Made by a program: the position numbers and the translations under genes. This document shows, in pieces, positions 7,952-8,712 of a stretch of DNA of 64,000 nt (its first letter is position 1; every line of letters begins with the position of its first letter). Location: assembly GCF_057098645.1 (NCBI RefSeq), contig NZ_CM169472.1. One strand, given 5' to 3'. The notes below the pieces were generated by a model. That model saw nothing but the letters and a program-made list of their open reading frames with translations. It did not search any database and was not told where the DNA came from.

Positions 7952-8236
7952 ATGAATATGAAACCGGAAAGCAAAGAAGCGCCAATCAATATCAGAGCGA
8001 AAGCCTCACAGCGTGACCTGATTGATATGGCAGCGAATCTGGTCGCAAAATCGCGCACTGATTTTATGCTGGATGCCGCATGCCGTGAAGCGCAAGACAT
8101 CTTATTAGATCAACGACTATTCATCCTTGATGACGAGCAATACGATGCGTTTCTCGCTGCCCTGGACGCCCCCATCACTGCTGAGCGTCAGGCCAAAATT
8201 AACGCGTTGATGAATCGTAAATCGCCATGGGAATAA
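7952..8236 (+). CDS. DUF1778/RHH-type antitoxin partner of a GNAT toxin
   Basis: 94 aa ORF (alternative start at 7958) directly upstream of, and overlapping by 10 nt, a GNAT toxin-like ORF; architecture typical of TacA/AtaR-type antitoxins. Confidence 0.6.
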   Translation: MNMKPESKEAPINIRAKASQRDLIDMAANLVAKSRTDFMLDAACREAQDILLDQRLFILDDEQYDAFLAALDAPITAERQAKINALMNRKSPWE

Positions 8237-8712
8237 CGGCTCCTACTCCCCTAACGTCTGAACATAATCTGGCTGACTTTTGCTGTTCCGATCACGGGAT
8301 GAATGAATGGCTAAAAAAGAAAGCGTTAAAAAATCACAGCACCGGTCTGTCTCGTGTTTACGTTATCTGTATTGTCAATACCCGCCAGGTAATCGGCTAT
8401 TACTGCCTTTCTACAGGCAGTATTCAACGTAATTTGGCCCCTGGAGCCATGCGACGTAATGCTCCCGAATCGTTGCCTGTTGTCGTATTAGGCAGACTGG
8501 CAATTGATCAAGCCTGGGCAGGTAAAGGGTTGGGCGTCGCATTGTTGAAAGATGCAGTCTATCGCACAATGTCCATAGCTCAACAGGTAGGGGTTCGTGC
8601 GCTCATTGTTCATGCCTTAGACGATTCAGTACGCAATTTCTATCTGAAGTATGCCTTTGTACCTTCACCATTCCAGTCACTTACCTTACTGTATCCCATT
8701 ACTCTGGAGTAA
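8227..8712 (+). CDS. GNAT-family acetyltransferase toxin (TacT/AtaT/ItaT-like)
   Basis: 161 aa ORF carrying the VLGRLAID...GKGLG acetyl-CoA binding signature seen in tRNA-acetylating GNAT toxins; start overlaps the upstream antitoxin ORF. Confidence 0.6.
   Translation: MGITAPTPLTSEHNLADFCCSDHGMNEWLKKKALKNHSTGLSRVYVICIVNTRQVIGYYCLSTGSIQRNLAPGAMRRNAPESLPVVVLGRLAIDQAWAGKGLGVALLKDAVYRTMSIAQQVGVRALIVHALDDSVRNFYLKYAFVPSPFQSLTLLYPITLE

Follow-up and report, generated by a model that had tools for sequence, protein, structure and literature searches.

Two small genes separate malT from rtcA in the 64,000-nucleotide stretch of DNA analysed here (hereafter the window), raising the question of what they encode, how they came to lie there and whether their position next to the RtcBA RNA-repair genes has any functional meaning. 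In the window, malT (5186-7891, plus strand) is followed by the two genes, designated below ataR2 and ataT2, and then by the convergent rtcA (8762-9790, minus strand). The listed plus-strand open reading frames (ORFs) run from 7952 to 8236 (94 aa) and from 8227 to 8712 (161 aa) and overlap by 10 nt, and the product of the second carries a VLGRLAID motif at residues 87-94. A gap of 49 nt separates the stop codon of the toxin gene (8710-8712) from that of rtcA (8762-8764), in agreement with the distance of about 50 bp given in an earlier note made from the sequence alone.

The toxin–antitoxin (TA) pair described in that note, with its two ORFs, their overlap and the VLGRLAID motif, is retained here with a single correction, which concerns the start of the antitoxin gene. 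As judged from sequence comparisons, translation almost certainly begins at the second ATG, at 7958, and not at 7952, because the first ATG reads ATC in strain GF4-3, because it is the second that lines up with the start codons of four diverged homologous loci, and because it is both the start annotated by PGAP and the point at which PDB chain 7F37_C begins. The corrected ataR2 gene (7958..8236, plus strand) encodes a 92-aa antitoxin with a TacA1/DUF1778 ribbon-helix-helix (RHH) domain and no glycine residue, and ataT2 (8227..8712, plus strand) encodes a GNAT toxin of 161 aa.

Family assignment of the antitoxin and toxin

The pair displays the layout of a GNAT/DUF1778 module, in which the antitoxin gene comes first and overlaps the toxin gene by 10 nt on the same strand. 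The antitoxin contains the expected DUF1778/TacA ribbon-helix-helix domain, detected as Pfam TacA1 (PF08681, formerly DUF1778; E = 1.2e-19, residues 12-87). The toxin shows the GNAT fold, the Q/R-x-x-G-x-G/A acetyl-CoA-binding motif and the catalytic tyrosine of its class. An alignment of 116 homologues shows that Y139, the LGRLA stretch and the glycines of the acetyl-CoA loop (G99/G101) are nearly invariant, with Tyr at position 139 in 114 of the 116 sequences and the Q-x-x-G-x-G motif kept. The Pfam matches of the toxin, to Acetyltransf_7 and Acetyltransf_1, are weak (E about 1e-4), and neither protein matches an NCBIfam model. Since the GNAT matches are weak when taken alone, identification of the toxin rests on comparisons with solved structures and with the Sakai genome.

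A search of solved structures shows that the toxin is identical to PDB 7F37 chain B at 159 of 161 residues over its full length (E = 9e-106), and that the antitoxin is identical to chain C of the same entry at 92 of 92 residues (E = 2e-55). Both matches are far stronger than chance would produce; weaker toxin matches are to the structures of TacT, AtaT and KacT. We take 7F37 to be the AtaT2-AtaR2 complex, on the basis of its sequence identity to ECs_4261/ECs_4262. Profile searches of both ORFs, proposed in the earlier note and run here, thus return PF08681 for the antitoxin and weak GNAT matches for the toxin, and Pfam and PDB matches agree with the DUF1778 antitoxin and GNAT toxin that the note had recognised.

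Relation to AtaR2-AtaT2 of the EHEC lineage

These comparisons give us high confidence that the malT-rtcA module is the chromosomal type II TA module ataRT2 (AtaR2-AtaT2) of the EHEC lineage, present in the window as its O145 allele. The Sakai RefSeq annotation places ECs_4261 and ECs_4262 between malT (ECs_4260) and rtcA (ECs_4263), and the spacing there matches that of the window. As expected of an AtaRT2 orthologue, the Sakai and window modules share locus, junctions and operon layout. The antitoxin of the window is 100% identical to ECs_4261, both being free of glycine, and the toxin is 98.8% identical to ECs_4262, with Tyr139 in both and the two conservative differences S39T and A50V in the window protein. 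The region 7400-9300 of the window is 100% identical to that of O145 str. RM9872. In the published nomenclature, ataRT2 corresponds to ECs4261-ECs4262 and ataRT to ECs4308-ECs4307 (PMC7470980). AtaRT2 is already a named system whose biochemical mechanism is known, which has been studied by ribosome profiling and whose crystal structure is solved. The earlier note was right as to family and missed that the module is this named and solved system (ECs4261-ECs4262, PDB 7F37).

Published work on the Sakai allele provides the toxin mechanism. Expression of AtaT2 kills or arrests E. coli BW25113, an effect prevented by co-expression of AtaR2 or by the Y139A substitution, and AtaR2 and AtaT2 co-purify as a complex of ~99 kDa, read as T2:A4, in which the toxin is neutralised (PMC7470980). 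When acetyl-CoA is present, AtaT2 blocks in vitro translation, and ribosome profiling reveals stalling at all four Gly codons without accumulation of ppGpp (PMC7470980). Mass spectrometry shows a gain of 42 Da on Gly-tRNAGly, corresponding to acetylation by AtaT2, and peptidyl-tRNA hydrolase (Pth) strips the acetyl-glycine so that the tRNA is recycled (PMC7470980). An independent LC/MS study identifies Gly-tRNAGly as the sole in vivo target of AtaT2, which forms with TacT3 a pair of sister subclades in 'clade D' of the GNAT toxins (PMC9177977). Aminoacyl-tRNA acetylation, which the earlier note had attributed to toxins of this class, is therefore experimentally shown for the near-identical Sakai allele (PMC7470980, PMC9177977). 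As these experiments show, acetylated Gly-tRNAGly is unusable in elongation, so that ribosomes stall at Gly codons and growth stops. The lack of glycine in AtaR2, noted by the authors (PMC7470980), implies that the antitoxin can still be produced during toxin activity.

Insertion of the module at the malT-rtcA spacer

With strains 40EC and BL21 as empty-site references for junction mapping, homology to the window stops at 7895 and picks up again at 8785. An accessory block of 889 nt (7896-8784, plus strand) stands where empty-site genomes have a 49-nt malT-rtcA spacer, which contains a hairpin of its own (AGCCGGATAA...ATCCGGCT) followed by the last three rtcA codons and stop. The GC content of the block (0.46) lies below that of malT (0.54) and of rtcA (0.60). 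The new rtcA 3' end (8762..8784, minus strand) consists of the MITKLTD codons and stop in place of SIE and stop, so that seven codons plus stop replace three, and the C-terminus of RtcA reads ...RVMITKLTD* in carriers versus ...DGVTRVSIE* in non-carriers. The RtcA tail is consequently four residues longer, and the annotated length of rtcA is 1029 nt in carriers versus 1017 nt in empty-site strains. This alignment, the check that the earlier note had recommended for the junctions, thereby fixes both the boundaries of the block and the C-terminus of RtcA, and substantiates the suggestion that the insertion had remodelled the rtcA 3' end. Likewise upheld is the view of the module as an accessory insertion absent from K-12-type genomes: malT is directly followed by rtcA in BL21, 40EC and most complete genomes, and the K-12 derivative BW25113 is stated to be without ataRT2 (PMC7470980).

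The block encodes only the two TA genes and no transposase, and so does not have the make-up of a transposon, insertion sequence or integron. Neither a target-site duplication nor a direct repeat is present at the junctions, and the sole inverted repeats are those of the candidate promoter/operator and of the 3' hairpin described below. The window, Sakai and the more diverged carriers GF4-3, RM14723 and E105 have the same junction sequences, which points to a single insertion event. The type strain of E. albertii has an empty site, with a 49-nt spacer essentially as in BL21, which indicates that the empty state is ancestral. A decayed copy with the same two junctions is found in Escherichia sp. 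MOD1-EC7003, a member of a cryptic Escherichia lineage (positions ~6040-6310 of the extracted locus). This relic keeps a promoter stub, ~120 nt of toxin coding sequence interrupted by a 10-nt deletion, the 3' tail and an RtcA that ends in MITKLTD*; nothing is left of the antitoxin gene and the toxin gene is largely deleted, illustrating how such modules get lost.

Taken together, these observations suggest a single arrival of the module, probably from a relative on a plasmid and by illegitimate replacement of the 49-nt malT-rtcA spacer, after which it may have been passed on or kept in a minority of the Escherichia lineages. The rtcA neighbourhood would then be an accident of the insertion, with the 4-residue-longer RtcA tail as its sole consequence.

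The sequences that flank the insertion site are themselves heterogeneous. The last ~96 nt of malT (window 7796-7891, aligned with 1401-1496 of the compared locus L003) fall into two allele classes, the window being identical to 40EC and only 83% identical to BL21; over the rtcA 3' region, the window matches each of the two strains at 92-93%. This pattern suggests a recombination mosaic around the malT-rtcA insertion site.

Candidate promoter, operator and 3' hairpin

Upstream of ataR2, a candidate promoter/operator (7889..7952, plus strand) consists of an imperfect inverted repeat around a sigma-70-like -35/-10 pair. The two arms of the repeat (7889-7915 and 7926-7952) are each 27 nt long and 78% complementary, and the promoter-like site within them comprises a -35 element TGTACA (7910-7915), a 16-nt spacing and a -10 element TAAAAT (7932-7937). 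The arrangement TGTGTAGC...GCTACACA is found at the same position upstream of four homologous modules, those of Yersinia, Salmonella, Pectobacterium and Serratia, in surroundings that are otherwise unrelated among the four loci; the outer arms of the repeat are degenerate in the window compared with these relatives. Conservation of the inverted repeat 7889-7952 suggests that the AtaR2-AtaT2 complex may repress its own promoter through this element.

Downstream of ataT2, the 49-nt gap between the toxin gene and rtcA harbours a hairpin (CTACCGGAT / ATCCGGGAG, 8720..8756, not assigned to a strand) with predicted folding energies of -16.7 kcal/mol on the plus strand and -17.2 kcal/mol on the minus strand. 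The fold is not clearly better than those of shuffled sequences (z = -0.9 on the plus strand and -1.8 on the minus strand), and a scan for consensus terminators does not call it. Neither result makes the hairpin a convincing terminator, and it may at most serve as a weak one.

Distribution and relatives of the module

The block is present in 394 of 5,426 complete E. coli genomes (7.3%), leaving ~93% without it, and each of the 394 carriers has one chromosomal copy, always overlapping the end of rtcA. Carriers listed by the search are mostly O157:H7, O55:H7 and O145, together with scattered others, and all of the matches listed are at least 98.3% identical. At the protein level, the search returned no cluster between 79% and 98% identity and none above 79% outside Escherichia.

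The nearest relatives outside Escherichia, at 76-79% toxin identity, are carried by F-like conjugative plasmids of Yersinia enterocolitica and Salmonella enterica, where the modules sit in the transfer region between traD and traT (4732-5483 of the extracted loci). On these plasmids, the toxin gene and traT are convergent and less than 50 nt apart, an arrangement that resembles that of ataT2 and rtcA. Homologues occur in over 4,000 plasmid records, with 74% as the best full-length identity, and a plasmid-addiction role is plausible for the plasmid-borne modules. Two Salmonella homologues detected by tblastn are 44-45% identical to the toxin. Phage records contain distant homologues only, all below 46% identity, and a prophage origin is accordingly unsupported.

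Other relatives are chromosomal and occupy unrelated sites. The Serratia module adjoins tellurite-resistance genes, and the Pectobacterium module lies in a variable region with RVT_1/STM3845, HicB-like and SymE-like genes. Within this Pectobacterium island (1669-4102 of the extracted locus), the RVT_1 reverse transcriptase gene adjoins the STM3845-family gene in a retron-like arrangement; the island also holds the HicB-like gene and the SymE-like toxin gene, and a sister strain is without these genes. The relatives share a common layout, in which a 92-aa antitoxin overlaps a 160-aa toxin by 10 nt, and their DNA similarity to the E. coli block extends from the candidate operator to the toxin stop. 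A donor of the insertion was not found among them, the best non-Escherichia relatives reaching only 79% identity and their similarity ending at the toxin stop.

A private rtcR mutation and other features of the window

The regulatory gene rtcR (11209-12807, plus strand) carries the stop codon that the earlier note had pointed out. An in-frame TAG at 12301-12303 corresponds to Q365* (CAG to TAG, C to T at 12301), and a further substitution, S316C (12154), is present relative to O145 RM9872. Two ataRT2 carriers, RM9872 and Sakai, have an intact RtcR of 532 aa. An exact 60-mer spanning the stop codon occurs in none of the 5,426 complete E. coli genomes, and Q365* is therefore a mutation private to the window sequence, one that should abolish sigma-54-dependent activation of rtcBA.

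Elsewhere in the window, an insertion of ~1.2 kb relative to O145 RM9872 (~38880-40070) lies inside a yhhZ/tssD pseudogene and contains a 326-aa transposase ORF (39026-40006, minus strand), presumably IS5 InsH from its appearance.

Alternative explanations

The equivalence and the history proposed above each have a competing account. The two substitutions of the window toxin could signify that the O145 allele is inactive or has a changed tRNA specificity, and hence is not equivalent to the characterised AtaT2. Among the five alleles compared, T39 and V50 indeed occur in that of the O145 lineage alone and are missing from the four others, and S39 adjoins a lysine-rich stretch, LKKKALK, which in our view may contact tRNA. 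However, S39T and A50V are conservative, position 39 is variable in the 116-homologue alignment and most often occupied by Thr, the residue of the largest homologue group, and position 50 belongs to a loop that varies and is prone to indels. Both the catalytic and the acetyl-CoA motifs are unbroken, and the antitoxin is kept intact and identical, as would be expected beside a toxin that is still active. An altered allele is on these grounds very unlikely, and a functional window ataRT2 is, from its sequence, fully plausible. The direction of change at the locus can also be questioned, since the module might be ancestral between malT and rtcA, in which case deletion would have produced the site that is empty in most E. 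coli. The MOD1-EC7003 relic demonstrates that loss by deletion can happen, and the module diverges between lineages by 0.3-1.7%, an extent comparable to that seen in its flanks, so that its presence is not very recent. Against this, E. albertii and the examined empty-site E. coli share the spacer, its own hairpin and the SIE* end, a combination that deletion of the module could not produce, and the relic retains the module junctions and has not regenerated the spacer. The GC content of the block, lower than that of both flanks, and the occurrence of its closest relatives on plasmids also speak for arrival from elsewhere, and an ancestral module appears so improbable that we give it almost no weight beside a single insertion into an ancestral empty site.

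A functional coupling of ataRT2 to RtcBA RNA repair, the connection raised in the earlier note, is a further reading of the locus. The substrates of RtcA and RtcB are broken RNA ends. Toxin activity might generate a signal sensed by RtcR, or convergent transcription and the new RtcA tail might modulate rtcBA expression or the RtcA-RtcR interaction. In favour of such routes, the genes adjoin, with 49 nt between their convergent stops and no strong terminator, and the C-terminus of RtcA is changed in all carriers examined; RtcA and RtcB are reported to bind the CARF domain of RtcR (PMC9650030), and the Rtc system is reported to respond to damage to the translation apparatus. By contrast, the closest homologous modules, found in Yersinia, Salmonella, Pectobacterium and Serratia, all lie away from rtc genes, the adjacency in Escherichia stems from one insertion event, and the rtcR stop is private to the window sequence. 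The chemistry is unfavourable as well, since AtaT2 does not cleave RNA and its product, an N-acetyl-aminoacyl ester, is resolved by Pth and not by RtcB (PMC7470980); this product is not a 2',3'-cyclic phosphate end. None of the papers returned by a literature search mentions RtcB or RtcR together with GNAT toxins. The proposed connection to RtcBA and RtcR thus finds no support in the neighbourhoods of homologues, in literature co-mention or in an association with the rtcR nonsense mutation, and coupling is highly improbable. The shared insertion, the ancestral empty site, the relic and the plasmid relatives all weaken the idea that proximity to RtcBA is functional, and a functional link of ataRT2 to RNA repair is not supported. 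Similarly, the specific conjecture that one ancient insertion physically linked the RNA-repair operon to a tRNA-acetylating toxin, through read-through antisense transcription and/or the RtcA tail, deserves scarcely any credence. If it were true, ataRT2 transcripts reading across the weak 49-nt gap would yield RNA antisense to the rtcA 3' end, which the hairpin at 8720-8756, as only a weak terminator candidate, could allow, and/or the ...MITKLTD tail would alter the RtcA-RtcR interaction, with the result that module-carrying EHEC lineages would show a different Rtc induction.

Comparison with known systems

The observation in the earlier note is correct and its object ordinary, the locus being a known one occupied by the known AtaR2-AtaT2 module. 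The module boundaries (7896-8784), the corrected antitoxin start (7958) and the evidence for one insertion event among the carriers examined have a bookkeeping value.

Outside E. coli, the plasmid-borne GNAT/DUF1778 modules share with the window module a 92-aa TacA1 antitoxin, the 10-nt overlap and the upstream promoter and inverted-repeat block. They differ from it in that their toxins are 71-79% identical, in their location on conjugative plasmids and in their unrelated downstream sequence. The TacA-TacT and TacAT3 modules of Salmonella Typhimurium (5FVJ, 7F36, 7AK8) belong to the same family and have the same architecture as AtaRT2, and the PDB match of TacA-TacT to the window toxin covers residues 3-155 (E = 7e-44). 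TacT and TacT3 are reported to target Gly-tRNAGly specifically in vivo, as is AtaT2 (PMC9177977). Identity between the Salmonella modules and AtaRT2 is nevertheless only moderate, as in the 44-45% of the two homologues detected by tblastn, and their genomic locations are different.

A second GNAT/DUF1778 module, EHEC AtaR-AtaT (ECs4308-ECs4307; 6AJM, 6GTP), occurs in the same strains. In the window, ataRT is located between panM and livJ (55881-56681, minus strand), with ataT (55881-56408, minus strand) encoding 175 aa and ataR (56415-56681, minus strand) 88 aa, and the two GNAT TA modules of the lineage are ~47 kb apart. Despite their common class, AtaT and AtaT2 are only 33% identical, and AtaT belongs to the basal clade A and displays a broader aminoacyl-tRNA specificity than AtaT2 (PMC9177977, PMC7470980).
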